Positions 17,735-41,278 of a stretch of 64,000 bases of DNA are shown here, piece after piece. Made by a program: the position numbers and the translations under genes. The notes under the pieces are model-generated. The model ran no database searches. It was not told where the DNA came from and worked only from the letters and a program-made list of their open reading frames with translations. Numbering within the stretch: the stretch's first letter is position 1; every line of letters starts with the position of its first letter. Where the stretch lies: assembly GCA_017499595.2 (NCBI GenBank), contig CM039010.1, forward strand, positions 1,240,001 to 1,304,000. The letters run 5' to 3'. The DNA is from Psilocybe cubensis (taxonomy: Eukaryota).

Positions 17735-17883
17735 CCTTGCATTCATGCTTCGTTTTTCGAACCCAATGTGTAATTTGTCTTTGTGCGCGATTACCTTCAG
17801 GGTTTGTTCAATGCTATAGTATGATTGACAATTTGATGTGAGCAAGTGCCAACGTAAAGTTCAAAAAATAATAACACTACTTG

Positions 17884-17919
17884 TTTAAAAAAAGCCCTTT
17901 CCAAAGGGCTTTTTTTAAA
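17884..17919. repeat. Perfect hairpin, 17-bp arms, 2-nt loop
   Basis: TTTAAAAAAAGCCCTTT-CC-AAAGGGCTTTTTTTAAA read directly. Confidence 0.9.
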
Positions 17920-18300
17920 GCGGGCTCGCTTCGCTCGCCCCTTGGGATCGAACTCAAACCTATTGAGCCTGAGGAGAGGATGTATTGTTTGCATTTGGTT
18001 TTATTTGACAGATAACGGTGTATTACTTCTTATCTGTTCAAAAAAAAATTATTTTGAGCGCAATACACCCATAATAATTCCAGATCCCTCAACTAATGTA
18101 AAATCTGAGATACTGAACCCACTTCCCCAAAAAAACCTGACGACAATATCAAAACAATTGGCCAACGTGGGGATCGAACCCAAGACCTGGTCCGAGAAAA
18201 GGGGGCGTGCCCGAAGGGTGAGCCGGGGCGGGGCAAGCGATACGAGGAGAGGGGGGAGCCCGAAGGGCGACACCCTCTCCGAGTATTGCACAACAAATCT

Positions 18301-18415
18301 GCGAGCGAAGCGAGCCCACAAACATGCGAGCGAAGCGAGCGCCCAAACCTGCGAGCGAAGCGAGCGCCCAAACCTGCGAGCGAAGCGAGCGCCCAAACCT
18401 GCGAGCGAAGCGAGC
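18301..18415 (+). repeat. Five copies of GCGAGCGAAGCGAGC at 25-bp period; one inverted copy at 17924-17938
   Basis: Copies start at 18301, 18326, 18351, 18376 and 18401. CTAGT follows 11 nt after the last copy (18427). Confidence 0.9.
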
Positions 18416-18460
18416 CGAATTTAAAACTAGTTAACGGTTAACACGCAAAGGATAAAGACA

Positions 18461-18537
18461 AAACTTTCTCTGAATCGGAGAAAGTTTCTTGGCCCACTCC
18501 TCTGACAGCCCAAACTTTCTCCGATTCAGAGAAAGTT
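18461..18537. repeat. Two inverted copies of a palindromic site AAACTTTCTC-N7-GAGAAAGTTT
   Basis: 18461-18487 AAACTTTCTCTGAATCGGAGAAAGTTT; 18512-18537 matches its reverse complement over 26 nt; 24-nt spacer. Confidence 0.9.
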
Positions 18538-18919
18538 CATTGGCACGTCTATTTTTAAACAACTGACGCGCGCAAAGACTAAACGGTTTAGCATACCTAT
18601 TAGTGCAGACTAAAGTCAATTAGCATGTAATGTGTCGGAAACTTCCCAGGTGCATGATCAGGCCGATAATGCCGTTAATGCTAAATTTGTATGATAATGC
18701 CTGATCAGAATTGTAGTCGCATGATCATTAAGCACCAACGTGATCAGGTAGGCCATGATCAGACAACAAATACCTGATAAGATGCATTTGACAAGATTAG
18801 GTGACCCGTAAAATGAGAAGAGTCAAACATGATCAAAAGAATACAAGAGCGTTGCTTGCCTTTAACACATACCTATAAGCCAGATATTGTAATTACAGAG
18901 CATTCATTAAGAGGATGTA

Positions 18920-19005
18920 CTTAGCGGGATTCGAACACATTACCTTGAAAGTTGTTAGATATACGTGAAAGACTTCTTACCTTTAAAACCACTGAGCCAT
19001 TTAGC
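18920..19005 (-). other. Degenerate tRNA-like Pol III cassette (A box and B box) inside the Plavaka element
   Basis: Minus strand TGGCTCAGTGG (A box, ~18989-18999) and GTTCGAATCCC (B box, ~18926-18936); no convincing acceptor or anticodon stems. Confidence 0.45.
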
Positions 19006-19282
19006 TGGATATTAACTGGTTAAAAAAGGTTAACTCGTACCTTTGTAAACATTTAACTCTTGAAGGCGTCACTCTTTGCCTCGCAAGTCGGATGCGCCTT
19101 GCAAATCGGATACACCTCGCAAATTGGATATGCCTCACAAATCGGATGAGATTGACTTTTGCTCTTACAGTAATACCCACAATTTGCAAGGGACTAATAG
19201 CAGTCGGATAATGACAGTAAGTTCAGTTTAAAATCTACACTGGATGTACTAATATTATCAATAGGACATCGACAATAATAAG

Positions 19283-21579
19283 TTATTTCCGTCCTCTTTT
19301 TCCAGAACCCCGGGACCGCGTTGAAGACTTCCCACCTCGTTGCGTGCCTGGGTCATGACTGGTGGGAGAGGAATCATTGGCATTGTCATCGGAATGATGG
19401 GAGGCATTGATTGTGTGAAAAGAAGTATGGGCTGGAAATCTTTCTTCCACGGCTAGACGAGAAGCTATAGCTCTGGACTCGGTGCGTGTTAACCGTTTTG
19501 TCAATGTTGCGACGGGTTCTGATGGATTGGCTTGAGAAGGTAGGGATTCTGTCAAAGGGTCGGCAAGTGTCAATGGATTGATAGTCGTCGGGTTGACATT
19601 GATATCATTGACAGAATCTAAAGTTGGATCGTTGCGGGGCTGTTCATTGAGTGGACGTGCGCCATCGTGATGTGGTTCTTTTTCAAAATTATCAGAGTAC
19701 TCTGCATCTGTAGTCGGACCATGGATAGGAACAAGTACTATAAGCCAGTATAAATTAGTACAGTATTAACAAACATAGTCACAAAAGTTGAATTTATGAC
19801 TTACAATCTGAGCGCATATCTTGACCTTCAATATCGTTGTCTGCATCCTCCGTTTCATCGAAATCTTCTCGATCAAATGCATCAGAATATGAAGACACAG
19901 CAAATTCAGATTCTTCTTCAAGACGCAGACGCTCCATGTCTCGCTCAATTTCGGCAGCTTGATCTAATTCAATAACCTCTCCATCACCATCGTGTCCAGA
20001 TTGTCCATGTGCCGAAATATTGACAGCAAATACTTCACTGTCCCACTCTTTGAGAAGTCTAACAACATACCCTGCAGTTGCCGGATTTGCATGAAGTTGG
20101 GTGAGGTACATTTTGTAATAATTGATCTCGGCATTGTAGTCAATCTTCGTATCGGGTCCAATTCCTGACCCGCCAAACGATTTGTCGCTAGATAAAATAT
20201 ATCTGCACTGATAATAGATGAACGTTGTATATAACAAATAAGGTAGACGGTCCAGCAACTTACAAATCCACAAATATTTGCAATTAGACCAAATGTAGTC
20301 TTTGCAGGCTTGTCCGACCCTAGATAAAAGCTTGAGGCCCGAGACACAGCATTGTCCTTGTCCATAGCGGATGTCTTTCCAAAAAGCGTAGCACGAGCAG
20401 TCTACAATAAGCCACCATAGTTAGTGTGAGCTTTGTAATTAAAAAAAATAAGCAAGTAACTGTTCATACCATATATAGAGACCTGTTTCGAAATCTATGT
20501 TCAACACGGGAGGTATCACCATTTTTACACAGAATAGGTGGAAAGCGAGCATAAGCCTTTTCGGGTGAGGCCTTTCCTGCTTCCGAGTTAGCAAATGCGA
20601 CATTAAATCCCAAAAGCTTCTGAATTTCCGGCATCTTGATTCGTTGGGATGTAAATTTAGGATCAAAGTAATGTGTCGGAAGGCCAAAAATACTGGCTGC
20701 ACAAGACGTTCGAAGCATTGATAATGATGTGGACCGACCAGCACTGAGTCCCTCCCTAAACTGTCGATGTAATTTGCACCCATTCAACAAAACATTAGCA
20801 TTCTATCGACAACTCGTTTAATTTAGAATATTAATGACTTACCAATCGGAGAAATGTTTTACCCTTTGAGCTAGACGCCAACCGCATGATTGGATGATAC
20901 TTGGAGGGAATGTGCTCGTAAAGCTCTAGAGTTGCTCCAATAGCCTCATTAGCTGGTGATTTGTAGCGCTCAACGCTGTCCAAGGCAAATGATGCAGTAG
21001 GTAATGTTGGAGAAAACATGGCAGGTGTAACAAAGAGATTGTAAAACAGTCCAAAATACCGCCCCCATTTTTTCACATCCAGCGCCATATCTGTCACAGC
21101 AGGGTCTACTTCGGATGAAATTGGGTCTACAATAGTGCCTGGAATACTTGCATTTTTAGCATTCTGCACGCGCTTTGGTTGACGTGTGAGCTGTAGCTTT
21201 AAATCTGCAACCTCAGCTTTAAGCTGTGAGTTTGCAGTCTGTAGAGACGAGTAGTCCTTTTGCAGTGTACAGTAGGCCTATGATATGTCAAAGTGATTCA
21301 TTTTCTGTTATTCTATACAGAAGTGTGAATGAACTGCACCTTATAGAGCTGTGTCATGTCTAGAAATTGAGGAACAGCAAAAGATTCTGAAGGATTATTT
21401 GATAGCAAGGAAGCGTTGGAAGAAGAAGTATCTAGTGGGAGTAATGTTCCGGGATCTGTAGCAAGTCCTGGCATTGAATCCACAATAAGAGGAGGAGTGC
21501 TAGTATGTGATAGCATTGGGTGATTGCCAGATGTACTTCTAGCAGAGCTTGGACCTTGGATACGACGACGGGCCATCAC
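19283..21579 (-). CDS. Plavaka companion gene, uncharacterised, multi-exon
   Basis: Co-oriented exons with GT-AG introns: KKWGRYFGLFY, RFPPILC, CRYILSSDKSFGGSGIG...YYKMYL...WDSEVF, then an acidic/low-complexity tail; lies between the TIRs. Confidence 0.7.
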
Positions 21580-22268
21580 TTTTATGTAGTTAGATTATGT
21601 CTACATATGCCTTTGGCTTGTTTTTTTATAAGAGCTTCCCTTCTACCCACTTCCAAATTAACTATAAACAATGTCTTCTATCTACTGATAATGAGGTAGA
21701 TGTGAAAGTATTGTATTTTAGAACAGTCTGAGACACATGCTGCTTGGAAGCGCATGCAATATGATTAGCAGATAAGCATGTTGTAGCTACACACCATTTT
21801 GATCAATGCACCCGGTTGATAGTGAAGGGATTCTCAATTTATTAATTCATCACTAATGCACATGAAATTGCATTGACACCACATGAGCAACTATCTATTG
21901 AGACCTCCACCTGATATGTGAGCGCATTCTAACATGATAGAATGCTATTCTATACTACAAATTAATTGAATCTATGTTTAATTTGTTGAATTTAGCCATG
22001 CCGCTCTCCAAACGCCTGTTACCATGTGCAATTGATTTGTTCTAAGTCAACTTTTTCACGGCTGTGAACTTTCTCACGATGTCGCATTCTTCTTTACTTG
22101 CATTTCAGGATGTGCCGATGTGTTACCGTTGGGCCAAAATTAAGTCTTTCAGTTTAATATGCCTAAATATATATGAAAGCGCAGCAAGTCTAAAGAAAAT
22201 ACCTTTATTTGGGGTGACCATTGACAAGTACAAAGGCAAGTGCAATTAATAGCAGGGCGGACAGTATA

Positions 22269-25200
22269 TTACACATTTGCATGATTAATCAATTCTACAT
22301 GACCTAAATCTGGATTTAAGCGTTCCCACATATCCTGATCAATGAGATCGTTGACCAAAAATTCTGATCCAGTGACATCCGTGCTGTGATTTTTGGATAA
22401 AAGTGCACCCCGAATGATTGTATCAGCATGTATGAAAACAGCTGATGATCTTGGCCGAGACCGAACCCTGATTAATCCCAAGTCTATGTCGCGTCGGCGA
22501 GCCAATAAGGATCGGGGGACATCCATAGGCAAGGCTAGTGCCATATAATATGTTTGATTATGTAGCTCGATACCAAATAGATACAAAAGCTGCACAAAAA
22601 TGCATTGCTTTTGATCAACCTTGATAAGGGCAAAGTCATATCTTTCTTTATGATGGAATTTGGGATTTGTTCGGAGTATATTGCTTTCTACCCGCCAGTC
22701 AATGAGTGATTCATAGAATACCTCAATAGACTGATAGGGTGTGATCTAAGTATTGAGAAATTTGATGTTAGTTCAATGCTTCAAACTGCATGCAAAAGTC
22801 TAAGTCTGATAAAGGTTAAACACTTACTGGATGATCTGTACTCAACAAAACTCTACTTCCAACGGTTTGTGAGAGTGATTGACCCAGCCTTCGTCGGAAT
22901 AAATTAAATGCAGTGTCTTGTGAGTGGATAGTTTCCAGCTCAAGTTCAGACAATGTAATGGTAGGAAGCTTTGATCCAAGATGTATATGGTCATTTCCAG
23001 GCTTAGATTTTGCTGGCAGGTCTAGGCCGTCTCGTTCTTCTGCATCTTCTATATTTTTCTCCACAGAAACATCGAGTAAGTCTATTCCATCACGTACAAT
23101 ATTTGACACAAGATCCATTTCATTGACTTGGAGAATCTAACGAGTTAAAAAGATGTAGTGATTCAGTTATGTATCAGGTAATGCTCACATAAAATAACAC
23201 AGTTCATGGCTTACTTGTGGTGCTACATTCTTGAAATTGGTATGATTCTGATAGAACTTTTTCAATGGTCCGTTTGCCTTCTCATATGGCTTTGTATTAT
23301 AGTTGCGAGTTACGCCTTTATTAAGAATGTCGTCAAATATATGCTGGTGCGTGTGTGTCTTGGGAAAATTCCAAGACTTCTCTGGACTTTCAGATGCATA
23401 CAACTATTTTGTTAAAATTTTGTGACAAAGTAAGCCACAAACCAATATTTGTAAAAGAAACACACCTGAAGAGTTTTGTTGAATATTTCAAGATATTTCC
23501 GGCCATTACTGATTGTTGTTTCCGTTTGCAGAGTTAGTGAAGCAAACATTCGAAGGTTTAGGTAGCTCCGAATTAGCCGTAGTAGTAAGTATCCACGTGG
23601 AGAAGCTTCAGCAGTCAGCACATGTTGAGCAGCAAAAATGATAACCTTGGATAGGTGTTCAAACTTTCGTCCATCAGACATTTCTCCGGTTTTATTTAGT
23701 GCATCAAAGTGGTTGAGTGCAGGCCATGGGGGAATACTTTGCAGACCAAGATCTACACCAACCTCAGCATCTCTACCTAGATCTCTAAGCACTGCTTTTA
23801 GCTCCACCAACATATGTGATTTGAATAGTCCCCCATCATAAGCATGTAGCACATCAAAGGAGAGTGCTTTGTATATATCGGTTCGGTTTATATCCCAGAA
23901 TACATTCTAGAAACATAAAATATAATTTCAGCACAAGAGTAAACAATCACCCTGCTAATGGGCGCTTATTTGAAATATACCATAACATCTGTAATCCCAT
24001 ATGATTTAAGCAGATCTTCGCTCTCTGTTGCATTTAAACTTTGGGAATGAATGTAAATTTGACGCATTTGAGAGGTTGTGCGTCGAGGATACACAGTTGA
24101 AAGGTTGGAAAGCTCGGAATTTGGAACTAAACAAATTGGGCAAGGAAACAGTCCTGTTCGACCTCGTGTCAATGCCATCATTGTCCTGTCAATAAAATTA
24201 TAAATTAGTTATGCTACAGAACTCTACTTTTATAATACAGCTTACTGTTCTTCGTAGTCAGCAGATATTGAGAGAATATGAGGAAAGATATTTCGAGTCT
24301 TTCCATCACCACACTTGATTGCAGCTCCAAAGGTTGCTGGCGCTTCAATTGACTGTAGAATTTTGTGTACGGCCTTATGCCAAATTAACCGTTTAAGGTC
24401 AACGTAGCTGGCTTTGTGAGTATGGGCAGAATCCTCGTCTGGCTATAATGAGAGAAGTTCAAATAATATTAGCAAAGATATGGGCTATTTGAGAGACATT
24501 GAATCATGTAACAAAATAGAGACATACAATGGGTAACCAGCCAATAAGTCGACCTCCTCCAACTCCAGTTCCATTCCGAATATCAACAGGAAGGTTTGCA
24601 CATCGTACCATGACAGGATAGCCTTTGACTGTTCCAAAGGATGATAATTGGGATTTATCTGCCCAAGGATTGATGAACATTACACTAGCGTCATTTGGAA
24701 TGTCTGGCCGTGACTTTGACATATCAAACATTTTGTGAGTAAATAGACTTGATTCTCAATGAAGTATTAGAATTTTGATACCTGGATGTCCCACCAAGTG
24801 TTCGCAGTCCACGGCTCATCAATTATCCGCTCAAACCTCTCTCCTTTATACATGAACAACTGTTCTGCATTCCAGTGAAACCTTCGGACAAGTGCTGGAT
24901 CCAAAAGAAGTTCACGGCACCATTCCCATAGGGGACGGTACCACACATTGTAGGTAAGGCTTTCACCCTTGTAATCGACCGAAATGGGAGTCTTGATAAA
25001 CTAAACCAGTTTTCAACAGGTGAATAATGAATTGTTAAATAAAGTTGCAGTGTGCACGTACTCCCTGTGCACGGGTTTCCCGTGCAAAAGTCCATATTTG
25101 AGTTAAATCGGCATCATTTTTCAGTGTGAATTCATTCGGTGATGCGATGGCTTGATGAATTAGAGCGATAAGCACCTCTAACTGATTATGGCTCAGATGG

Positions 25201-25886
25201 GCGCTAAGAAATATCTCTGCAAACTCGAAGTCAAGACGTGTACGGAACGGGCGCCAAGGCCTCTGGTCCACATTGACCGAGTTTAATGGTGAGTTGCCTT
25301 CGCTTTCAAGCTCGCAGTATTCGTCAAAAGTATAATTTGCATCTGGCATTTGGGAGCTTGGGTGATACTTAATGTGTATGTCTTGAAATTGGGGAGTGTC
25401 AGTGCTGCGAGCTTGCTCAAAATTGACGTCTAATTCAGAATCCTCTTGTATTTCTAAATTACAACATCATCAGTAGCTTCTTATCTGTTTTTCTCTCAAT
25501 TAAATAGTGCTTACCTTCGGAGAATATATTCGGAAAGTTGGGTACTTCTGGTAATATACCGGCCTTGTGATAGTTGTTTGGATGTTGTTGTTGAGCAATT
25601 CGGATAGCATCATCAACTATTAGAAATACAAGCATTAGAAATATGTATGCACAGAAGTAGATACCATCTTTCCATTTCTGCCCTCTTGCTCAGCAAGAGC
25701 AACAAATTCCGTGTCGATTTCCGGTGCGTGACGGTTTGAATTGGCTGGATTGAGTGCGCATCGTCGTTCATGAGCTCCAATTCCGCGAGGAAGGTACATG
25801 TTTGTGCACCAGGTGCACTCAACACGACCAGGATCTGCATGAGACATCATGTGCCCTTTAGATTGAGATGTTTTACGAGGAGGCAT
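22269..25886 (-). CDS. Plavaka transposase, multi-exon
   Basis: N-terminal zinc-finger-like CTWC...HERRC; PWRPFRTRLDFEFAE; EPWTANTWWDIQ; WADKSQLSSFG; SADYEEQ; FPCPICLVP; SFDVLHAYDGGLF; WNFPKTHTHQH...NYNTKPYEK. These motifs are typical of Plavaka transposases. Confidence 0.88.
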
Positions 25887-26856
25887 AATATTTGGTAAGA
25901 GGCTTGTAAGAGAGAAGATAAGGGCGCTATTTGTTCATTTAAGAAAGCACACATTCCACTGTAATTTATACTTTTCTATGTCTTAAGAAATCGAGTTACA
26001 TTAAGCTAGAAGAGTTCTATACCTTCTCTAGAAGTTTACATGTCTACTTTCTTGTGGAACTAAGTGTTCTAAGCATGCTAAACTTTGTAGATGACAAAAA
26101 ATCGAAGCCATTAAAGGCATTTAAAGTGTTCTATTGTCCATTTTATTTGTGTTTAGTATTGTGATATACAATCTAATCATACAACCTAGTGCACAGATTG
26201 CCCGTAGAAGCATAATGTGTGGTGCTATTAGGGTTTTTGGTATGCTTAAACAACTCCAAAGTCTCTAGCAATCGTTTCCTCACGTCGTCTATGACAAGTC
26301 CCTAGTGTACGTTATCTTATCTTAAGGTCATTTATAACATCACACTGCTCTTAGCATTAACAGGAGGCGGTCTCGCTTATCATACCACGTTGTGCATTTT
26401 AGCCCATTAACAATGATCTGATCAGTAAAATTGGGGCAATGATCAGACTAACGCCTGAAAAGGCGATCTAGAGGTTTCCGACATGGCCAGACTTAACAGT
26501 CGCCCCTCTATTCCTTGCTCTCCAACATGTCTACCCAACAGCCCCAACCTAACCCTCAGGTCAACCCAGTGGCTGGCCAGAGCAAGACTCCTTCCTCATA
26601 TGCATTTCGGCAAATGTCTTCCCTTGTATGTCTATCCGTTTCCTATGACCCACTATTTTCTCACTCTCGATACAGGATATCAAACCAAAGGCATGTTTTA
26701 TGTCTTTTTCTACTTCTTCAACTCACATCTTTAAAAGAAATGTGATAATTTTTTGCCCGGACAGACATCATTTTTCATAAATGAGTGGGTTTTCTCTTCT
26801 TTCTTGTCTTTCTTCGCTCATCCTTCACAGAGAATCTCCCACGCAAAAATAAATTG

Positions 26857-27922
26857 TTATACAGTCTGACCCGCAGACGTGCGGTTATCTACGAAATCAA
26901 ACACATAGTCCCTCACGGGACCCCCAATAATGTCCATCAGCTCAACAAAAAATTCCATTGATTTATGCGGCATTTCCCTAGGCGGGGTCTTGAGTGCAAT
27001 TGCCACCATGGACGTAAAAGTAATTGAACGACCAGTTTTTCCGTCTGCGTAGCAAATACTAGGGTTCCAAAAAGCATCCAAGAGAATGCATACCCCAAAC
27101 TATGTTCCATCAGATGTGATTCTCCTATGACATTGTACTCACCTGTTCATACAATTTGGCCAAATCTTTTCTAGCCTTGACTATTTTCTCGTGGCGGTGT
27201 CCAAGCACTACACTGATTTTTTTGCGTTCCAATTCCTCCTCGCCTGCAACCAGGTCTGCAATCACTGCTTCGCGGTAGCGTCCCTTTGTGGCACGGTCAA
27301 GTGTTCCCCACTCTCGTGCATACCGGATAGCTTGGATTATTCCCAGCAAGCCATGTACGTATGATTGCAGCTTGTCATCCGTCTTGATGTCGGCCTGGAG
27401 CATCTCGCGTCTGTACAAACGATCACATACATTTGTGATCTGCTCAATGCTGAAGCTCGCCTCACAGATTGAAATAAACGTCCCATTGTATGCGTATGTA
27501 CCTATATAGTCTCGCTTTAAAATGTCAGCAATGTTGGTATACAATAATATGCCACCTACCAAATTTCCATCGGTTGTGTATCCCCGGTAAAGGCGCAACA
27601 GCGCCCCTTCCTCCCTTGCTTTCTGTCCCAAGCACACTCCAAGGTCATATGCCCAGTCCTGTGCAGTAACGGGCACCATGTCCTGTGCAAGCAGACTGTT
27701 GAAACGAGTCTGCGGTATCATTTTGCCGTCCGTTGGCACCTCTATTTCTCTCCAACAATCAGTGTCTGGCTCAATTCCAGACGCATACATGACCCCGGTG
27801 AGGTGCATGTACATCAGCCCTGCCATTCTATGGAGCCTCGCTATATTGTTTCTGTCGTCCGAATCATCTTCCAATGGTTCGAGTTTTGTGACTTCGGCAT
27901 ATGCCTTTTCCAGGCTCTTCAT
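26857..27922 (-). CDS. Uncharacterised protein, paralog A of a head-to-head pair
   Basis: MKSLEKAYAEVTKLEPLEDD...ASGIEPD...LLGIIQAIRYAREW...LYEQ|FGVCILLDAFWNP; alternative upstream ATGs at 27955 and 27970. Confidence 0.75.
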
Positions 27923-27985
27923 GGTACAAGCAAGAAAGACGCGTCTGAGTGACATCTCGTGACCGCGCATATATTGACCACCACC

Positions 27986-29076: not shown

Positions 29077-32028
29077 CAACCCTACGAGCAAAACACTCCT
29101 TAAAACGACGCGTGTGAGGAGATCCACGATACCATGTTCGCCACTGTGCACGCGTTTGCGGTTGTGCTTTGCCATCCAAGATCATCTCTACCCGTTCTTT
29201 GTACCATCGCTCGTTTGCCGGCGTCCATTCAATCACCTGTCTTCCGTTTCGCACAGATATCCACATGTCGGCAGGTGGAAACCATGACTTGATGGTCGTT
29301 TGACTTTTGCTGTGTCCTATACAGTAATTAGCATAAATATCAATTACGCTCCTGCTATTTTACCTGTGTACATTCCGTATGTTCCACAGAGGATCGCCAG
29401 CTCGCGTTCCGTAAGCTCATCGTCTCCATAAAACAAATTTAAAACCCCCGTCGGAGCTACAAACCCTTGTCGATTCGTCTGGATTTCATGCGAAGGACCC
29501 TCCAAACAGTCACCCAAATCGAGATAGTCGCTCGCGATCCGACCCACCAATCCACCCTTCAACACCGCTGCCCGACCATGCGAGTGTTGCAGCAAGGTTT
29601 CGCACTGGTACTGGTATTCCTTAAAGTCATCCACGCCAAATTGATATCCTGCTGGACGGTATGACACGGGTTGGAATACATCTGCCACCGTCTTGCTTCT
29701 GGTGGACATTGAAAGTCCAACCAGAGTCCGACATGGAACTCCTTTGCTGAGCATCTTGTATGCAATTTCATCTACTGCTAGCAAAGGGTTATCTCTCACA
29801 AGTCGGCACACATACAGTGCAATTTCAACCGATTCCACACCCAACATCCAGTCCGAGCTCTCAGACGGACGTAGCGAAAAAACAAACAGGTTGGGAAGCG
29901 GGCGTTGAACATGGTGCAGTGGTACATCGCAACTCCATGTCCCATCACTGACAATGTCATGGTAAAAGTCGTGGATCGACTGCTGCTCCAATATGCTAAT
30001 TTGGCCCAGATCCGACTGGTTAAAACCAAAGCATTCCACAATGTCCTGCCAATCGTTGGGTGGCCTCAATTCTTTGCACGTTGACACTCCGGTGTATCCA
30101 TAGCTATACCGAATGGTCTCCACGAAATCTGTCGAGGGCATCAGCCACCGGCGTTCTGGTTCACTGGCCTCCTCTGCAACAATGGTGGGGTTTGCTTTAT
30201 CTGCAACGAGGGTGGTGTGGGCTTCCTCTGCAACCATGGTGGGGTTTGCTTCATCTGCAATGATGGTGGGGTTTGCTTCATCTGCAACGATGGTGGTGTG
30301 GGCTTCATCTGCAACGATGGTGGTGTGGGCTTTCTCTGAAACAAGGGTGGGCTGGGGTTCTGTTTGTTTGGATTCACTGCCCTGTTTTGGAGAAAAGAGC
30401 CCGTGGTATGGCTCTGACGACATGTCGTCACTGTCCTCGTCACTGTCGCTTCCCCTTGTGCGGTAAACCAATTCTTTAGGAGGATCAAAAATGCACAAAT
30501 CCCATTCATTTTTTGCAGCATTGTACACTCGACGCCGGGTAGGACAATCTCTATGAGCACTTGAATGGTCGCTTTTCAAAAGTTTGCGACGCACGTAAGC
30601 ATTCATCTCAAACGTCCACGCGTACATTGTTGTTTTCAGCAGAGGAGCAGGTGTTGACATTGGGCGCGGGGGTTTCCTTTTCCACTGGGCCAGCCTGTCC
30701 TGCCAGTACGGAGTCCAATCCGCAAATACCTGGGTGTGCTTATGACCGCCGTAGTCTTCAGAAAAGTCAAATACTTGCAATTCATTGGCTACTTGCACAG
30801 CGTGCGTCTTCAGCTCTTCAGACCTCTCCTTCAACAGTGCGTCAATATCCAATCGGTCCCATTCTGCGCTCATCTCATCCAAATGGTCCCTGTAGTGGTT
30901 GACTATGTGCCGGAAAACAACAGAATCAAATGTCATTTGGCTCATCAATTTCAGGCTCGGAGAATCTGTGTTGTCGTGCATGTTGTGGTATCTGCGAATA
31001 AGCAAGCACCCAATGGGAATATTCTGTGCAGCCGCGGTCCCTAGAACCTCATCGATGACGTCTGTAAGCATTTTGGAAGGTGGTTCAAGACCCTTCCTAT
31101 TGACACGGGACGTTTTCAAAAACTCCTCTTCCACAACCCGCCACGGATAGTACACCGGGACATGGTTCTCCAAAAACACTTCGATGGGTGGCTGAGTTCG
31201 GTGAGTTTGTGTCCATTCATATGCGATTCCAATGCGAGGCGTTCGTGCATTGAAAGAGCACACATTCGAATTGTATATCCCGTCTAGCCATGCCTCCGTG
31301 ATCAAAGGTGTCTGGCGCTCAGGAACCAGCCAACGACATTCCTTCAATGCTCTTTCCATTTCTTCGTCAGCAAGTTTCTCCTGCTCCTCTAGGATTCGCG
31401 TGTGCCATGCAGGTACAGGAAGATTGGGTTGACTTTGTAGGTGCACGGCGTGTTCGGGTCGACGGGATTGCACAATCAGGTAGGACATGAAGCCCATCCA
31501 CAGGACAAAACAATTTCGGCTGATTTCAATCATCTTTTTCGCCACTGCAGATGTTTTGTGGGTCCGCTTGTAGCCAAAATCCCCTGGAAAAGGTGGTGGG
31601 GTGCCAGGTATGCGATACCACAACCGCAGCTTCTCGCACAGTTTCACTATACGCCGTTCACACATGTCCCATTTGTCTCGGTCTGCTTCGTTCATTCCCC
31701 ATGTTTTATCAGTTTTAATCAGCTTCGGTGCCCAGCATAGTGGTTCAAACGGTGTGGCCAGAAAAGTTGGGGTTAAAGGCACGAATGATAGCCATCCATA
31801 GCTGTCCTCCCATCGAACAGGCTGTCTGTAGTTGGCGAGATCTAGGTTGTAACGGGGAGGAATATACGCTGGATCGGACACGTCTGCTGTCATCACAGGT
31901 TCAAAGTGCCTCAACGTGGGCCTCTCATCTTCACCAGGCATAACAACAACTCGTTCACTATTTGGAGAACAGTATATAACACCATCTTGCAAAAAAACAA
32001 CGCCCTTGGTCCAGTCAATGTTTTCCAT
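29066..32028 (-). CDS. Large (~970 aa) uncharacterised protein, probably element-associated
   Basis: 894-aa exon plus a terminal exon after an intron at ~29320-29365. Motifs GRAAVLKGGLVGRIA, DDELTERELAILCGTY, SWFPP, WTPANERWY...W. Contains an internal 9-aa repeat. Confidence 0.78.
30170..30335 (-). repeat. Coding 27-bp minisatellite (~6 copies; EAHTTIVAD/EANPTIIAD)
   Basis: CTTCATCTGCAACGATGGTGGTGTGGG-like units in tandem. Confidence 0.85.
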
Positions 32029-32037
32029 GTTTCGTCT

Positions 32038-32245
32038 CAGGAAGATCTTCCGAGAGAAACGTGTTCGTTACAGGAAGATCTCCTGAAAGACAAGGGTACG
32101 AGTGCTCCCGAGAGAAACGTGTTCGTTACAGGAAGATCTCCTGAAAGACAAGGGTACGAGTGCTCCCGAGAGAAACGTGTTCGTTACAGGAAGATCTCCT
32201 GAAACAAATGGGTACAAGTTTTTCGTCTCGGGAGATCTCCTGAGA
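32038..32245. repeat. 58-bp tandem repeat carrying CAGGAAGATCTCCTG quasi-palindromes
   Basis: Units at 32071, 32129 and 32187, plus degenerate cores at ~32038 and ~32228. Confidence 0.88.
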
Positions 32246-32359
32246 GAAACAAGTACAAGGAACCAATTGAACAAAATTTTTACAAGTCATTCGCATTCGT
32301 GACCCGATTACATAAAGGCTTACCTAATCCATGGACTTCGCGTTACCTGCTTGCTCACC

Positions 32360-32480
32360 ACGCACTCCAGAGATCTCTGGTTTGCAGCCTATCAAAGTGT
32401 ATGCTACCTGCACTCCAGAGATCTCTGGGTTGCAGCCTATCAAAGTGCACGCTACCTGCACTCCAGAGATCTCTGGACTG
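32360..32480. repeat. 48-bp tandem repeat with perfect 14-bp palindrome CCAGAGATCTCTGG (3 copies)
   Basis: Palindromes at 32367, 32415 and 32463. Confidence 0.92.
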
Positions 32481-32647
32481 CAGCAATTGCGTGTCTCTCG
32501 CCTATGCAGTGTGCAAGACTGGGTGTTGGCAAAAAAAACTACGATCACGTGTGACCCTATCGCGTCCGAACGCGTCCCCTCCCCCGCCCCCCCCCCCCCA
32601 CTTCTCTTTCAGACCATCACGCAACTCCCTTTGCATATATCCAAAAC

Positions 32648-33522
32648 ATGAATTCCCCAGCCTCCGAACAACATCTGACCGTCATCAGCGTCCAAAACAT
32701 GGATTCTCCAGCCTCCGAACAATATGACGACGCAGTATCACACGAACAACATCTGACCCTCTACAGTGAGGAACAAATTGGCGCATATAATCTGGTTTCC
32801 AATGCTGCATTGCGTATGATCAGTATAATCGAAATAGCCCTGCCTTCGACCATGACTTTGTGCCAAGACCTTGGTGCCGCACTCTCGTCGTCTGCCGTCA
32901 CAGAACTCAACATTCACGGAGAACTGTGCCCTGCAGCGGTTTCATGGCTTTTAGACGAGAAGTGGAGAATAGTTCTAGGACAATTAACTGTTTTGCGCTA
33001 CAAACTTGACCTGACCACGGCAGAGGTGAATATTTTGCAGATTCAATATAATCATGCTCACCCGGCCAGGATGAATTTGAGGAGCAAGTGAATTGTCCCT
33101 GGGATTCCCCACTATGGCCGAAAATGTTATCCCGATGCACTTCCTTGGTCTTGTTTCTCGTCAAGACACCCGTCCTTATTCAATTCGATCACGGCTTATC
33201 CCCCGATTTTACCATCAGCAAGGCTGTAGAAAAATGGAATTTGGAATCCATTAAAACACTTCGACGATTCTATCTGTTCCATGCATATAAGTCAACGCGG
33301 GTCACTGACTTATATGGATGCCATAATCTTCTCTGGCGCACTTCAGAAAATGACCAGTGGCACCAAACAATAATTCGCCCACCAAAGAAAATCATGTCAT
33401 TACACCGCCGTTTGCTTCGATATTCTGCGGACCGAATCGAAGATTCCGATATAGATGTATTTGATTCTGATGATTCTGATGATACTGACGATACAGATGA
33501 TGCTGATGAATATGATGATTAA
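32648..33522 (+). CDS. Uncharacterised two-exon protein with acidic C-terminus
   Basis: ORFs 32648-33091 and 33088-33522 join in frame through a GT-AG intron at 33026-33069; tail DSDDSDDTDDTDDADEYDD. Confidence 0.6.
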
Positions 33523-33879
33523 ACTTGTCGTAATACCGTTTGTCGCCCGAAAATCGTGTTTTCATTCAATAAAGTACTACACTATGTTTTCACTTTTGCA
33601 AATTGCTTCTGGAATACAAGAAAATCGCTACCAATAGTAAAACAAAAATAATGTTTTGTGTGAAATACATGTACTGTGAACAACATGCCTTACACCTATG
33701 AGATACTAATATTATCATAACGAGACTGTGCAAGTACGCGGTCTTTTCACAGACGCGACTGTTACGTTGTGCAGCAAATATATTATTTCTGTACATTGAT
33801 CGTGCACGTGATATACTGCACGTGATTCCATGGACCTCCATAGCCAACACGTCAGCAGCTCTCTCTGGATCTGCTATAC

Positions 33880-34290
33880 TGCACTCCAGAGATCTCTGGT
33901 CTGCGGTACATGCACTCTGGATCTGCAATACTGCACTCCAGAGATCTCTGGTGTGCGGTACATGCACTATCGACTGGCGATTCCGGCACTCCAGAGATCT
34001 CTGGTCTGCGGTACATGCACTATCGACTGGCGATTCCGGCACTCCAGAGATCTCTGGTCTGCGGTACATGCACTATCGACTGGCGATTCCGGCACTCCAC
34101 AGATCTCTGGTCTGCGGTACCTGCACATCTGGCATTGAGAACATGCCACAGCCTATTCCGTCCTCCGGTCCGCGGGTCTCTCCCTACTACTCATATGTTA
34201 CTTGCACTCCAGAGATCTCTGGTCTGCAGCATATCCAAAAATCTGCCCTATCGCTCCCCAGGCCTTGTACACCAGAGATCTCTGGTCGGC
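33880..34290. repeat. 52-53-bp tandem array with CCAGAGATCTCTGG palindromes (7 copies, one variant)
   Basis: Palindromes at 33886, 33938, 33991, 34044, 34097 (CCAC variant), 34209 and 34272. Confidence 0.92.
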
Positions 34291-34815
34291 AGGTCTTAGT
34301 GTGGCCTTCTGCTTTGGTTCTGCAGGCTGACATGAATATGACAGCTGTAAATCATACAAAAGAAGGATTGCATCAAGCACTCTATGCTTCTCCGATTCAC
34401 TGCCAAGATATTGATGTCGATCAAAATGGCCACCCCACAAAGGCAATCCCATACAGAGGTCGAGTCGTTTAACATCGCCCTCAATCAGTGTTGCAACGGC
34501 CAGACACTGTGGGCCAAAAAGTCATGTAAAGGTTGGTGATTTCTACCACTGTTATGTGATTCAAATTCTAAATATCATGTTTTTTTCCTAGGCCTAAAAA
34601 TATGCTGTGCGACGCCTATGATTAATCCTAAAGCAAACACCACCAATCATATGCAGCGGAAAATTGTGCAATCTGTAACTTCATTCTAAACGTCACTTTT
34701 GATACTGCAAAGCACTATTGGTGATATGCATTACACTTTTCATTAAAAAAAAAAAAAAAACTCGTTGAATTAAGCAGTTTCAGGCGAAATTAGTGTGCAT
34801 ATGACGCGCATATAT

Positions 34816-35419
34816 TCACACTGATGCCATATCAAACATTGTAACTCCCACCATAGCAGACTATAGACATCTTTAGAACAAACAATATCATCGCGGACAG
34901 ACTATACTCACATTGGTGGCCTGTTCCAAAAGCAACCTTTTCTGGTCCAACTGGGCCAACTGGATCGTCTTTTGTGCTTCGATGGCCTGACGCTTGGTTA
35001 TCTCCGCTGCCTCCGCTGCCCTTGCTGTGGCTTCCTGGGTCTTCAAGATTTGGATCCTTTCTTGGACTTTGGCTTCTTCAAGCTTTATCTTCTCGGTAAT
35101 CGCGGCATTCTTGAGCAAGCTCTCCATCCGGGTAGCATCAAACAATGACAATGGGGTGGAACAGCTAAAGACAATTAGCATATGCAAGGGCCACTACGCC
35201 AATATTCACTGTTCATTTTCTTTTTCTCTGCTAACTATCAGAATACGGAAGTGGTTATTCAAAATCTTCTTACTCTTCGGAATCCGTTATTGCCTTTCGT
35301 TTGCCTTTGTCACCAATTTTCTGTCTTTTGTTTGCCGGCCTGCGTTTGCTTTTGGGTGCCGCTATGTCTAGTTCTGTAACACTAGAAGTTGAATCATTGA
35401 GCATTTTTACGTCGGCCAT
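34816..35419 (-). CDS. Small basic/coiled-coil protein, divergent from the recombinase gene
   Basis: MADVKML...KSKRRPANKRQKIGDKGKRK (NLS-like), a coiled-coil exon (EKIKLEEAKVQERIQILKTQEATARAAEAAE...) and a short last exon ending TGA at 34816. Confidence 0.6.
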
Positions 35420-35543
35420 AGTGTTACGTGCAAAAGCAAGCAGGACGCCGTGTCGGACAGGAGGTCGAACGGCACCACGTGACCGTTGAGATATCAAGGA
35501 TTCGCAAAATTGTTACCAACAAGATTCCTTCCTCCCCCCCAAA

Positions 35544-36793
35544 ATGTCGTCTCACCCCCACATACGAGCCGCATATTTCAGGGTCTCCCTCGATGAAGCT
35601 CAGGAGGCTCTCAAGGATTGCATTGAGAACCTTATGTCGACGACTGCGCCTGCAACTCTGCGCAACAGAGAAAAAATTCGTATGAAGTTCCTCTTCACTG
35701 TGCAAGCGTTCGAACCCGATCTCGAAGAGCATCGTCTCTGGTTCCACGACACTCTTGAAAAGTACTACCAGAAGTTTCTTGTATTTTTGGTTTTAGCACT
35801 CAGACAACCAGATGGCACTTACAAGTGCACCGCTGGAACTATGAAAGAGGCTTATCTGACTTTTTGTTGGCACATTGCCAGATTCGCAGTCGATGCACAA
35901 GGGAAGCTTATAGGCTCCAAGCTTCTTTCAGCAGAGGGGTACCATCAGTTTTTAAAAGATCAGTGTTATACACGTACGTGATTTGCTCCTTATATTTTCC
36001 CTGTTCACGGAGCTCATTTTTCTACAGTAATCACCAAATACAAACTGGCACGCCACCAAAAACCTCGTATTATGCTGACTGAATTCGAACTTCGCCTTAT
36101 CGTTGAACAAAACTTGCTCATGTCACAAAAGTTCAATCGTCTGGTTGCGCTTCAACGCATCTGCCTAGCGTTAACTCTATTCTATACTCTGTGCCGGCCG
36201 GGATCTCTGGGACCTTCGGAAAAGGTCTACAAACAAGATAAAAAAGTATTTACTCCTCCTTTTCTTTCCCTTTTGTTTTCTTATTCCCACCTAGTACCCC
36301 TGTGTCAAACACGTCAAGTTTATTCGTATCGACCGTCTCAAATATCGAGTAAAGTTGCAAATCATGCAGCTCAAAGGGCACAACACCACATTCACTGGCG
36401 AGCAACGCGAATATATTTTAGAGCCGGTCAAGAACTGGTTTAATATCATGTTGGAACATGGGATCTACATGGTTTCTTTTTTTCTCGCCCGCGGATTGTT
36501 TGTAAACATTCATGTACGTGTTTCCTGCCTCTAGTTTTTATTTTCTACAACGGCTTTATTTGCAGACTATTGAAGATCTTGCAAACTCGACCGATCTTTA
36601 TTTGCCAATTGATCCAACACGAATGGAAGAACCCCTATTCTTGGCGAGCGGGCCTGGCGGAAGAGGCTTTAAGGACCCTCCGGAACCAATGGTCTCCACT
36701 GGTATTACCGCTGGCATGAAGACTGTCGCCGTCAATGCAGGCCTACCAGGTGCTACAGCATATGGTTTTCGTTCTCAAGGCGCCATAGACGCA

Positions 36794-36824
<31 letters not shown>

Positions 36825-38958
36825 CCTATGATAACCGCTATACTATTAGGTCAAAAACAAATTTGGCAAAGACGTGGCAGAAACTCTCCTCACCCATATT
36901 GAACCAGGGTCACACAAATTTTACTCCTCCGAAACTGCAGCTTTTGACCTTACTGGCATGATGCTCAATGAGCTGCCTATACCCTTGGATGCAAACAAAA
37001 TGGCAAGTTGAATCTTGGTTTGATGTCTTATCACCTAACCTATTGTTTTAGCACATCATTGAACGTGATTTGATTACTCGTCCTGCTATTATGTGTCTGA
37101 TGCAGATACAACGTGCTATCCGTGCACACCTGCCAAAACAACTGATTGCTCAAGTTGCTCATGCCACAACCAATGAGCGGACGGCCCCCGTCAAACTAAC
37201 TGAAGCTGAGACCATGGAAGCCCATAAGGTATTTAATCTGGTTTTGCAAATTAAACAGTTAATCATTCGGTACTTCTTTAGAACAATCCTAAATTGCAAA
37301 ACCTATTGAAAGAGGAAAGCAGACTTCGCACAGAGTTTCGAAATTGCTTTAGCGACACTCTCACCAATGGCCAACCTTTCCATTACTCTAGCCGAAGCAT
37401 TTCAACAATATTAAATTCCAAGACAGTTATTCGGCTTGTTCCTGATGACAAAATAGACAAAGTAACTGCTTATGTCCTTGATTGATCTCTTTATCTTCTA
37501 ACCATCTCTACCAGGTTGCCGCAGATTATCGAAAAGCTGCCGCGGCTGCAACATCCATGCGATCCAAAGTTGCAAAGGCTGCCAAACGTGACAAGGAAAA
37601 GCAAGTTGTCGCGACCAGGCGTCAGGACACAGCAGGATCCACTGACGACGCCAACAAGGCTATAGCATTGCTCAAACAACCATCCGATTATCTTCTGGTT
37701 CCACAGGCCTCTACCTCCACTCGGATCATAGACTCCATAACCACTGCAGTCGGCTCAGCCTCGATTCTTGAAAGAGCTAAAAGGAAAGAAATAGATCATA
37801 TTATTTCAAAATCTCACATAGATGGCGTGGATCCTTTGCAAGCTGATCCAACCTTCAACGCCATGGTCAAGTTAGTCGCAGCTCGGATGCAAGAAGCTAA
37901 CCTGGGTGACGGAGAGCATGACAATCCCGAGGAAGATATTCCAATTGACCCAGCTCTCCGGAATCTCGATCAATTAATCACCAATGCTACCCCAGTGCAC
38001 AAACGTTCTTCTGCGCCTATATTTGCATCTGATGACGAGTATGAGGATGATGACGACGACGTCGAGGATACTCCAAACAACATTGCTGATCATGAGCACC
38101 CAGACGACACCAAAGTCATAGTTGATATGACCAACTTGCGAATGTGCACTATGGAATCAATTCTCCGCCCCATCATCACCCAAAGAGCCCTGGAAAACAA
38201 TGAAAAGGTGTGTATCAGTTTCCTACGTATTCACAACAGCTGACCAATGAGCAGAACGCCAATGGCAAATATGTTTGCCCACGCTGCACCAAATATTTCA
38301 ACAAAAATCAAGAATTTTCCTCACTTGCACATTTGGAGCGACACATGCAAGTATTATTATGGAGCCTGCTATTTTACCCTAATCCATTTATTTTAGAAAT
38401 GTTCAACATACTGCGTGGAAGGAGCTCATTTTGTTGATGCATGATGCAACCAATGCCGACACATTTATTTGCCCCACTGTGCAGTGCAAATTCAGGCAGG
38501 CTTTTCTACCAAATGATCACCTTGACCTTGACCTTGTTGACGTCTCTTTCAGGGCAACCTCTGAGAAGGCAGTAATTTCACACTGTCTCAAGGAATGTGT
38601 TGATGTGGAAAAATATACACAAATGTGGCAACATCACCAAGAGATGACTCTCGATAGCCGGTCCAGCAAAGGCCAATATAATCTTGTATCAAACGTAACA
38701 ACAGGTGAAATATCAGAACCTAATACCAATCTTCTTCTCGCCTCGTTTTTACCGTTTGCAACCAGTCACCCTGTGAGTTGATTTTATGTAATAAATTTAT
38801 CATCCACACTGACAAAATCAAAGCTTACGTATGGGATCGTTAGTGATGTATTTGAACAGTACGCCAGCTATCAACCGATACAGCAAGAGGATGCTCGAAG
38901 CATTGAGGAGGTGGCAGGTTTTACATACCAAGATTTGATAAATGAGTTTGATGCATAG
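35544..38958 (+). CDS. Tyrosine recombinase, DUF3435 (Starship captain)/Crypton-like, with C-terminal C2H2 zinc finger; multi-exon
   Basis: Spliced translation shows ordered YR catalytic motifs: LFYTLCRPGSL (R), QLKGHN (K), FFLARGLF...PLFLA, AGLPGATAYGFRSQGA (YxxR), LLTH...HKFYS...FD (H, Y); later CPRC...LAHLERHM. GC-AG introns at 36791-36849 and 37003-37051. Confidence 0.75.
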
Positions 38959-39594
38959 TAATCTTGATGGGGGTACTCGGCAGTGCCGTTGTAGCGCCCC
39001 CTCGCTAATGTCGAACCTTGTAGCACTCTTGTAGCTTAGGAATGTTTTCGGTAGAAGTTCGATGTTGTATCATCGACAACGTGTAATTTCATTCCGTGTA
39101 TTCCTTTATCCCATATTATAAAAAGAAATACTGTGGGGAAATGATTTGTGGGACCCCTCCGCACGTCACCCCCATAGTTGCATTCCACGCCTTTGCCCAG
39201 TATCATCTCGCATTTCAATATCCACTAAATCCCCTGCAAGTGTTTTGGAAACGTAAAAGTAAGCATTTCGTCGTTCCTCTGGTGGCCGAAAGATGGCAGC
39301 AAGTTCATCTGATCGTCTGAACTTTTGATTATATGCTTTCTGGAAAACAGTGATCTTTTACCAGACAAACATTTTACAATTATCCAGTGAATCAGGTGGT
39401 GATTTGTCTACGCATCATGATGTGTCAGTTCTCAGCAGTCGCCGAGCTCAAGCTTGGAGCAATCAGCAGGTCATTCGGCAAGCCTTAAGAAGAAGAGCCA
39501 TATTATCATCGAGCAGTCTGAACTTCCGGCACTTACGGAGAGGTTGACTCGTCCTTTATCTGTCTTTCCAACTTCACCTCGCTTGCACCGCGAC

Positions 39595-40634: not shown

Positions 40635-41278
40635 GAATTAAACCACCAGAGCCCCAAAGAAAAGGGAAAAGTGTGTATGTATTCAATAGAATATTTTAGT
40701 TCGCTTCACATCAAGTGCATCTTGATAAAACTATAGTGATTAATCACCACCTACTAATAGTAAAAATGAGTCTACCCAGTGCGGAAGGGAGGTGTAAAAA
40801 ATCGTATAAAATATAACCAACGGTGGGACATGTGTAGAGTGCTTGCAAATACTTAAGCGCTCAGGCATGACTCAAAGCGCTCAAGCTCGCTCAGTGGTCT
40901 CGCTTTCCCAAGTCAATTTTCTGAGTAATCAAAGAACCTCAGTTCTAAGAGTAGAATTACCTGCTAGAGTTGAATTACCCGAGAATGCTTTGATTGTATG
41001 AAGATCTACTTCAGTGACACAAAATTCACTTAATACTTTGAAGATCTGCTTCTTCACTGTGATGCTCCAGGGGTCCATGACGTTCAGCACCATTCAAAGG
41101 CGCGGGAACCCACGACCACTTCCAAATGCTAATGAGCAGAGCGTCCCGGTACTTAGCCCGGCCGCGATAAGGTGGTATTACTCGTTGTAGAGGGCATTTC
41201 GGAGGTGAAGCTGTTTTCGGTTGCGAGCGGAGTACTGCCCTCGCTAACTTGATCGGCTCCGCTGAAGCCACACTTCAG

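Follow-up and report, generated by a model that had tools for sequence, protein, structure and literature searches.

Organization of the locus

The analysed window, a stretch of 64,000 nucleotides of Psilocybe cubensis DNA, contains a probable nest of mobile DNA to the right of SOF1 that reaches up to about 39.1 kb (Table 1). SOF1 was identified by the Sof1 domain in the open reading frame at 17287-17841 (Pfam), and the sole Pfam match between this gene and about 39.1 kb is the transposase of a Plavaka transposon. This agrees with an earlier note on this DNA, which had found no housekeeping genes in the interval. Nonetheless, the region of 39-57 kb is also without Pfam matches and, for this reason, the absence of housekeeping genes alone cannot delimit an island. 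No tRNA genes or Rfam matches were found across the window. The right-hand neighbour gene, which had been called a truncated acyltransferase, is indeed shorter than in the contigs of other runs (truncated at 40521/40587), but a Pfam search gave no match even at E up to 5, and the acyltransferase identity is putative. The region of 39.3-44 kb has full depth and ordinary spliced genes, which rejects the suggestion that the element extends to the right. The contigs of run X10, an RNA set by guess only, are confined to 39385-44000. From run X12, labelled as a different organism, there are just short pieces with exact identity, at depth 2-3, and scraps of low likeness, and the run therefore provides no information on synteny.

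Table 1. Features of the locus, with positions in the window
Feature	Position	Strand	Remarks
Fold-back region and 25-nt tandem array	17913..18443		SOF1 3' flank; array of 5 copies at 18294-18443
PlavakaA DNA transposon, complete	18633..26483	-	7851 bp; ends TGTCGGAAAC..GTTTCCGACA; 2-bp TG target duplication
Plavaka transposase domain	23415..25000	-	5 collinear exon pieces; PF18759 positions 41-322 of 325
Gene A1	26860..27973	-	unclassified family; 2 exons (intron about 27100-27142); last exon crosses left break zone
Left break zone	26926..26951	.	X9 high-depth contig ends, low-depth contig begins
12-nt direct repeat ACGTAAAAGTAA, left copy	27012..27023	.	60 nt inside left contig break
Gene A2	27986..29076	+	A1 paralogue (31% identity), same intron position; divergent to A1
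Gene B	29066..32028	-	971 aa; one 47-nt intron (29317-29363); precomputed family PF28437
Five CAGGAAGATCTCCTG-type palindromes	32038..32242	.	just upstream of gene B
Three CCAGAGATCTCTGG palindromes	32367..32476		48-nt period
Gene C	32648..33522	+	no family; acidic tail; model uncertain, two ORF pieces
Dispersed multi-copy repeat fragment	33644..33760	.	inside block
Seven CCAGAGATCTCTGG palindromes	33886..34285		52-53-nt period; direct orientation to 32367 array
Gene D	34300..35419	-	no family; coiled-coil-like; model uncertain
Tyrosine recombinase (YR) gene	35544..38957	+	about 11 exons, about 1000 aa; C-terminal C2H2-like zinc finger
Right breakpoint of low-depth block	39233..39234	.	alternative-sequence loose ends exactly at 39234
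12-nt direct repeat ACGTAAAAGTAA, right copy	39251..39262	.	17 nt outside right breakpoint

The Plavaka transposon is a separate element within the nest, as had been proposed. Its inverted end TGTCGGAAAC, a perfect 10 nt, is found at 18633-18642 and 26474-26483, with TG on either side and TGT..ACA ends. Of the five exon matches to PF18759, three (36.9, 26.5 and 35.7 bits) exceed the 26.3-bit cut-off and two fall short of it. The empty site is present in the reads or contigs of two runs, where the left flank is joined straight to 26483. These loose ends comprise 30 reads in run X13 and one contig in run X9, and their consensus equals window 18600-18629 with one mismatch when compared by eye. 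PlavakaA transposons are defined by 5'-TGT..ACA-3' termini and a 2-bp target duplication, and the nested element shares with them the transposase, the termini and the duplication (excerpt of PMC12730594). It is an ordinary member of PlavakaA with nothing notable to set it apart.

A block present in some genome copies

What the earlier note had taken as the backbone of the island is a discrete block that is present in some genome copies only. Between about 26.95 and 39.23 kb (about 12.3 kb), the depth is 0.36-0.40 of that of the flanks in two independent sets of reads or contigs. In the raw reads of run X13 the mean depth is 16.4 over the 18 bins of 27336-39341, against 41.7 in the five bins to the left and 40.6 in the seven bins to the right, and in the contigs of run X9 the block has a depth of about 33 versus about 91 for the flanks. 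Given that about 1632 million letters were read in run X13, and that the contig sets of runs X1-X9 amount to 40-50 million letters, the genome-wide depth is near 35, which places the flanks at the normal level and the block below half of it. Depth is informative in these two runs only, and their strains may be related. Most simply, the block, found on roughly 40% of genome copies, would belong to one of the two nuclear haplotypes. The fold-back part beside SOF1 (17.9-18.6 kb) is only a putative member of this low-depth block.

On the right, the block has a sharp edge, 276 bp past the stop codon of the YR gene. The other genome copy has, to the left of 39233/39234, at least 99 nt that are absent from the window; the empty site that the earlier note had recommended looking for was not obtained in clean form at this edge, where the other copy has unrelated sequence. 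The left break is not fixed to the base and falls in the last exon of gene A1. No terminal repeats were found at the breakpoints, and a search of the block edges for Plavaka-type ends gave none. Among the joints listed for the two runs, none links both flanks, and circle-type (back-joining) reads are also absent among the joints listed. The 12-nt direct repeat ACGTAAAAGTAA, of a length common to just 165 among 20000 pairs of random windows, was a candidate for the junction but was discarded, since a full-depth contig starts already at 39234; it is off both breakpoints and is probably not the junction, so that the direct repeats expected at the ends were not recovered. Differences between run X9 and the window amount to 0.2-0.7% in the block and 0.16-0.37% in the flanks, and this similarity indicates that the arrival of the block was not very recent.

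Gene content of the block

The genes of the block are tightly packed, in line with the earlier description. The start codons of A1 and A2 are 13-61 bp apart (27925, 27958 or 27973 on the minus strand versus 27986 on the plus strand), A2 and B overlap at their coding ends (stops at 29074-29076 and 29066-29068, respectively), and 124 bp separate the start of D at 35419 from that of YR at 35544. Pfam searches with A1, A2, B, C and D gave no match at E up to 5, and a PDB sequence search with A2 was also without match. Protein-atlas matches of A2 (0.86, unnamed clusters) and B (0.83, RdRP clusters) were dropped because shuffled proteins often score higher.

The palindromic site arrays were likewise recovered, with five CAGGAAGATCTCCTG-type sites and ten copies of CCAGAGATCTCTGG, all of the latter inside 32367-34285, versus 0.12 copies expected by chance. 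Between the two CCAGAGATCTCTGG arrays, the fragment at 33644-33760 attracts 54-65 loose-end reads versus a local depth of about 16-24, and a variant contig of run X9 reaches a depth of 228.

Gene B belongs to a family of dispersed repeats, which in other places behaves as a repeat in its own right, of about 3.3 kb. In the annotation, B is modelled with 894 aa, without its last exon. Units of about 3.2 kb, with 82-88% nucleotide identity, occur across different contexts and sometimes twice per contig; P. cubensis has three B paralogues, and 49 loose-end reads fall at 29577, within B. Relatives of B were found in 48 metagenome loci, all of them distant (23-38% identity). The co-occurrence of the backbone genes, which the earlier note had put forward as a check, was not observed there: relatives of YR, A1, A2, C or D lie beside B in none of the 48 loci, while a Plavaka transposase does so in eight. 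This linkage was examined from the side of B only, given that YR alignments are too variable for a metagenome scan. The palindrome motifs are also absent from the 48 loci, save for one 11-mer. A Foldseek search with the structural model of B (pLDDT 67.5) was without match at E up to 0.001, and the best VIA-align match of the model has Z 5.1, with helical bundles only.

The tyrosine recombinase

No recombinase gene other than YR lies in the block. YR is collinear with a Galerina homologue of 970 aa over residues 7-903 of the homologue and, although the annotated model (383 aa) is truncated, the gene itself is intact. The catalytic residues R (CRPGS), K (LKG), R (GFRS), H (THIEPG) and Y (KFYSS) are encoded in window exons 2-5 and align, in conserved order, to nearly invariant columns of the family. 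The first His of the (His-x-x-)Arg box is a Tyr here, at a position that is not conserved in the family. A model of the family member P0021, built from a 49-row alignment that includes the protein of the window, has a pLDDT of 84.4, and its top Foldseek matches are XerH, Cre, XerA, lambda Int and Flp (best E 2.2e-4, probability 1.0); the Cre/Xer/lambda-integrase fold was thus tested on this relative. Membership in the tyrosine recombinase superfamily, as already claimed for this gene, is confirmed by the residues and the predicted fold, both of which fit.

There are 126 relatives of YR in the representative library. DUF3435 (PF11917) was matched by three of the 30 relatives tested, two of them above the Pfam cut-off, while the window exons and the annotated 383-aa model gave no DUF3435 match. 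The family is Agaricomycete-wide and related to the captains of Starships (DUF3435). A word-index search with the YR alignment returned only the query itself, and the 90% identity cluster has one member on one contig (single-copy). Depth across the gene is flat, at the low level of the block.

Comparison with known elements

Captain families described include, for example, 'Family 11' of basidiomycetes. The block differs from a Starship in its Agaricomycete host, in a YR that is below the Pfam threshold and in its size of just 12 kb, and the short direct repeats or inverted terminal repeats and the empty site of Starships were not found at its breakpoints. It resembles the Starships of Pezizomycotina in its recombinase, of a DUF3435-related family with a YR fold, in the extra genes carried and the presence/absence polymorphism (excerpt of PMC11162782). 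In a Starship the captain lies at the 5' end and points inward (same excerpt of PMC11162782), whereas the YR gene here is at the edge and points outward, as the earlier note had remarked.

Like fungal CryptonF, the block has a YR without reverse transcriptase and no long terminal repeats (Goodwin's model, cited in the excerpt of PMC13465315). Cryptons are simple elements with one gene and optionally a second, expected to insert site-specifically and to leave only short direct repeats (same excerpt of PMC13465315). In contrast, the block has 12.3 kb and six genes, and its YR is single-copy where Cryptons have repeated genome copies. CryptonF carries a GCR1_C domain, while the YR protein here ends in a C2H2-like zinc finger.

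Tremella belongs to the Tremellomycetes, a class other than Agaricomycetes. With the starfish program, Starships of 42-606 kb were reported in Tremella fuciformis; these share with the block a captain-type recombinase, boundaries and a basidiomycete host and, unlike it, combine a typical captain with both direct repeats and inverted terminal repeats (excerpt of PMC13066641). Another unexplained YR gene of the genus is 'tyrR', as yet uncharacterised, which is part of the psilocybin gene cluster in Psilocybe gandalfiana; it lies at a different locus and is compared here by description only (excerpt of PMC11812301).

Origin of the block

The explanation that we favour, with about an even chance of being correct, is that the 21-kb stretch is a composite, partly present nest of mobile DNA with at least three pieces and not one element. 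The first would be the PlavakaA transposon (18633-26483), a cut-and-paste insertion with 2-bp TG duplication; another the block of about 12.3 kb, with A1/A2, B, two palindrome arrays, the repeat fragment, C and D, on roughly 40% of copies; and the last the intact YR gene of Cre/Xer fold at the right edge of the block. Most likely, there would have been several insertions into one haplotype, the recombinase unit among them. We infer that the block grew by separate insertions, and site-specific recombination by YR would account for the insertion of at least the part to which YR belongs. Nonetheless, uniform low depth with one sharp right edge would also be given by a single insertion, the unusually tight packing, with stops that overlap and starts at 13-124 bp from each other, points to a unit that has co-evolved, the linkage data of B come from distant relatives only, and the window haplotype alone fits an insertion or a deletion, in one event or several. 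It is rather unlikely that the block is a single cargo element, Crypton- or Starship-like in a mushroom-forming host, with the YR gene at its trailing edge excising a circle and integrating it at a specific short site. The sole recombinase gene is intact with its catalytic residues and close to the sharp breakpoint, the depth of the block is uniformly low in both runs where it is informative, the packing is tight, a 12-nt repeat rarely shared by random windows lies near both ends, and the differing sequence in the other copy could be another occupant of the same site. A specific form of this idea, with a captain-like YR in reversed layout, palindromes as protein-binding sites and a target site with different occupants in the two nuclei, is unlikely. 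Against a single cargo element in general, the 12-nt repeat is displaced at both ends, flank-to-flank joints and circle reads are lacking among the joints listed, YR points outward unlike Starship captains and is single-copy at 90% identity, and the block contains a dispersed-repeat fragment. Given that there is no clean empty site and no breakpoint repeat, that the left break is in A1 and that B is unlinked to YR, the self-contained unit of the earlier note holds as a discrete low-depth backbone with a sharp right edge, but is not supported as one YR-mobilised element with its own gene set.

The block may also be immobile, being an old structural difference between long-lived haplotypes or the result of a deletion in the other haplotype, with heterozygosity kept, for example, through linkage to a balanced locus, of mating type or otherwise. 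Both runs that can be judged are heterozygous, nine of the 12 runs listed with some of 31001-41000 carry 0.88-0.96 of its words, the divergence in run X9 resembles that of the flanks, the other copy has different sequence instead of an empty site, and the left break is in a gene whose 3' end is shared. We regard this as doubtful, since the content is transposon-like (the B repeat family, YR, the repeat fragment) and just two runs, possibly of related strains, were examined. Homeodomain or pheromone-receptor matches were absent among open reading frames of at least 90 aa in the window and of 55-89 aa in 39-57 kb, and a mating-type locus was rejected on this basis. That the low depth is an artefact of mapping, sample mixture or mis-assembly over ordinary fixed sequence is highly improbable. 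The ratio is indeed 0.36-0.40 and not 0.5, and samples may mix genotypes, but raw reads (X13) and contigs (X9) step at the same places and loose ends lie exactly at 39234. Furthermore, the contigs of run X9 span the internal junctions of the window with 0-24 mismatches, which means that these are not an assembly artefact.

Implications

Cargo-moving recombinase elements like the Starships of ascomycetes are an open question for basidiomycetes. According to the excerpt of PMC11162782, captain-type recombinases of basidiomycetes are not linked to any element whose boundaries can be identified, and the excerpt of a 2026 Psilocybe preprint presents such elements as not characterised in Basidiomycota, while some were found by software in the 2026 Tremella paper (excerpt of PMC13066641). 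Even if the locus is a mere nest of transposons, as we favour, it exposes an Agaricomycete-wide family of recombinases of about 1000 aa, of which the one annotated copy seen, the model of the window itself, is truncated, and also a dispersed repeat family (B) without known fold. If the block were a single element moved by YR, it would be the first bounded one of its kind in a mushroom-forming fungus. An intact captain-related gene is found here at the sharp edge of a block that is still segregating in a cultivated and easily crossed species, so that excision, inheritance and the empty site are directly testable, and the block of P. cubensis is a testable candidate for a mobile element with cargo in a mushroom-forming fungus.

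Presence and boundaries of the block

The block of about 12.3 kb that lies to the right of the Plavaka transposon (about 26.95-39.23 kb) was shown to be real and present in several of the sampled strains, and to occur in only a fraction of the genome copies in each of the two public sequencing runs where depth can be judged. This is seen from a step in read depth, breaks in contigs, an alternative sequence and the occurrence of the block across runs. Four public runs were mapped to 24001-44000, the interval to which the findings on depth and joints refer. Mean depth of the raw reads of run X13 is 41.7 at 24001-27335, 16.4 at 27336-39341 and 40.6 at 39342-44000, and the contigs of run X9 have a depth of about 33 in the block versus about 91 in the flanks. 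From the roughly 1632 million letters of reads and contig sets totalling 40-50 million, the depth across the genome comes close to 35, which puts the flanks at normal depth and the block at about 0.4 of it. The X9 contigs break at 26926-26951, the left boundary being known as a zone, and at 39234-39263, while another X9 contig at 39234 bears 99 letters that are absent from the whole window. Sequence differences between the X9 block and the window amount to 0.2-0.7%, similar to those in the flanks, and among the 12 listed runs that contain part of 31001-41000, 9 carry 0.88-0.96 of its words.

The earlier note had considered that the element might extend to the right. This is excluded for the polymorphic unit, because 39.3-44 kb is at full depth. 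Within 39.3-44 kb, contigs of X10, taken by guess to be an RNA run, skip stretches bounded by GT..AG or CT..AC, as in spliced transcripts. In the right-hand gene, earlier called a truncated acyltransferase, an X10 contig and an X9 DNA contig depart from the window at 40521/40587 and continue with non-window sequence, the next listed X9 contig beginning at 40830, which indicates that the window copy of this gene is broken at 40521-40830.

Genomic surroundings

Database entries with 100% identity exist for two proteins encoded in the window. One of these entries is hypothetical protein JR316_0013135 of Psilocybe cubensis, a species placed in Agaricales, and the window accordingly belongs to this species. 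The Pfam matches on the left side are an amino-acid permease, an AAA_5 protein, Vps26 and a WD40/Sof1 gene ending near 17.8 kb, all of them ordinary genes. The scan gave no matches in 39-57 kb, and the first match on the right side, at about 58 kb, is an isocitrate/isopropylmalate dehydrogenase. In 17888-18537 there are a tandem array of 25-nt units, a fold-back whose arms measure 26 nt (17913-17938 / 18401-18426), a hairpin that is rich in GC and has a T run, and an inverted pair of 26 nt without mismatches (18462-18537). tRNA-like T-arm strings occur here too, yet ARAGORN found no tRNA, and the stretch could represent a small, non-autonomous element.

Features of the window and their coordinates
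Feature	Position	Description
Plavaka element	18633-26483	perfect 10-nt inverted ends TGTCGGAAAC, TG on both sides
Tyrosine recombinase (YR) gene	35544-38957	about 11 exons
ORF	11653-13896 (-)	748 aa, GC-rich (local GC 0.52-0.57 for the two ORFs), no Pfam match
ORF	44740-47175 (-)	812 aa, GC-rich, no Pfam match
Direct repeat outside the finding	49396-49866 / 50754-51224	471 nt, 83% identity
Tandem repeat outside the finding	62784-63050	unit of about 90 nt

The nested Plavaka transposon

Inverted ends and a target duplication delimit the Plavaka, as the earlier note had observed. Exon pieces on the minus strand (25000-23415) are collinear with positions 41-322 of the 325 of the Plavaka transposase profile. 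PMC12730594 gives TGT..ACA ends together with a 2-bp duplication as marks of PlavakaA, and the nested Plavaka is an ordinary transposon of an already known kind. In X13, 30 reads carry unmatched letters before 26483, as does one X9 contig. The consensus of these letters, compared by eye, equals the left flank (window 18600-18629) with one mismatch, indicating that a transposon-free form exists. The X9 contig carrying this form has a depth of 139.7 versus about 91 in the flanks, which means that the surroundings of the insertion point are themselves repeated; the empty form may derive from a different locus instead of the other allele. Among the variant places in 24001-44000, C>T and G>A predominate (154/292 in X9 and 133/282 in X13) and, among the rows listed, lie mostly within the Plavaka, to which other copies also contribute reads.

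The tyrosine recombinase

The product of the YR gene at the right edge of the block is an apparently intact tyrosine recombinase, of a family that is related to the Starship captains but distinct from them. This is indicated by its relatives, their matches to the captain domain, the catalytic residues and the fold model of a relative, which together confirm the gene proposed from the sequence. The exons are collinear with residues 7-903 of a 970-aa protein of Galerina marginata. The public model is truncated (383 aa versus about 1000 aa) and skips part of the catalytic region, and a Pfam scan of the exons and of this annotated model gave no match. Among 1.84 billion representatives, a full HMMER scan detected 126 relatives at E <= 0.001 and 72 at <= 1e-10, mostly about 1000 aa long. 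DUF3435, the domain of Starship captains, is matched by 3 of the 30 relatives scanned, two of them exceeding the curated cut-off. Of the 30 relatives looked up, 26 have names, each 90% cluster having 1-3 members; all 26 belong to genera generally placed in Agaricomycetes, which a look-up confirmed for Tulasnella. The residues R, K, R, H and Y are nearly invariant in the family alignment and all five are present in the window exons, which also encode a C-terminal C2H2-like finger. For a compact member of the family, the predicted structure (pLDDT 84.4) has XerH, Cre, XerA, lambda integrase and Flp as top PDB matches.

Other genes of the block

The other genes of the block (A1, A2, B, C and D) are as tightly packed as had been described, with the starts of A1 and A2 13-61 bp apart, those of D and YR 124 bp apart, and the coding ends of A2 and B overlapping at 29066-29076. 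A1 and A2 are divergent paralogues with 31% identity, a common intron position and a second exon in each, with which A1 extends down to 26860. B (29066-32028) has 971 aa when a 47-nt intron and the last exon are taken into account; the public model missed this intron and is therefore truncated, at 894 aa. Three paralogues of B with 32-42% identity are found in P. cubensis, and relatives in 48 metagenome loci. In these loci, units of ~3.2 kb around a single ORF recur with 82-88% nucleotide identity in differing surroundings, sometimes twice per contig, indicating that the B family behaves as a dispersed repeat. The ORF of this family (precomputed PF28437) is mostly intronless and of 800-990 aa (loci L022, L024, L028-L031, L035-L040), and the units often adjoin a Plavaka transposase or an unrelated ORF family of ~800 aa. 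The predicted fold of B had no informative structural match; it may be a transposon protein of an unclassified kind. For C and D, none of the sequence sets searched contained a relative. Loose-end reads (54-65) and a variant contig of depth 228 mark 33644-33760 as a short fragment of a multi-copy repeat.

The palindrome arrays, with site motifs CCAGAGATCTCTGG and CAGGAAGATCTCCTG, are far above chance (10 copies of one motif versus 0.12 expected). They occupy the B-C and C-D intervals, directly oriented and with a common left flank, and look like putative binding-site arrays for a dimeric protein.

Origin of the block

That the whole block is a single element driven by the recombinase, as the earlier note proposed, would fit its uniformly low depth, its packed genes and its sharp right edge, 276 bp past the YR stop codon. 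Nonetheless, the left break falls within the last exon of A1, a multi-copy repeat fragment lies inside the block, and the other genome copy gives the unrelated 99 letters at 39234 instead of the clean empty site expected. Neither a flank-to-flank nor a circle-type joint was found among the rows listed for the reads of 24001-44000. The short direct repeats anticipated at the ends amount to one near-terminal 12-mer, which sits off both breakpoints and is of a kind shared by 165 of 20000 random window pairs. The linkage of the backbone genes was also not found in the metagenome loci: relatives of YR, A1, A2, C and D occur in 0 of the 48 loci, which hold distant relatives of B only, while a Plavaka transposase lies beside B in 8. 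The YR family is related to Starship captains but does not show, or does not clearly show, several of the defining Starship features.

The preferred reading of the region is nested mobile DNA on a single haplotype, made up of an inserted PlavakaA, a repeat unit of the B type, a unit with the recombinase and passengers of unknown nature. The literature searched on Crypton and Starship in Agaricomycetes gave no description of such an element, and in the literature searched, bounded captain-type elements in basidiomycetes are treated as absent or only just reported; PMC11812301 mentions, without study, a tyrosine recombinase gene in another Psilocybe. According to the model of recombinase action in PMC13465315, YR would act like the Crypton and Starship enzymes, with excision as a circle, which would recombine at a short site of its own with a matching site in the genome and so become integrated, with only short direct repeats left behind. 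From this, we infer that circle excision and site-specific integration by YR may have operated in this region.
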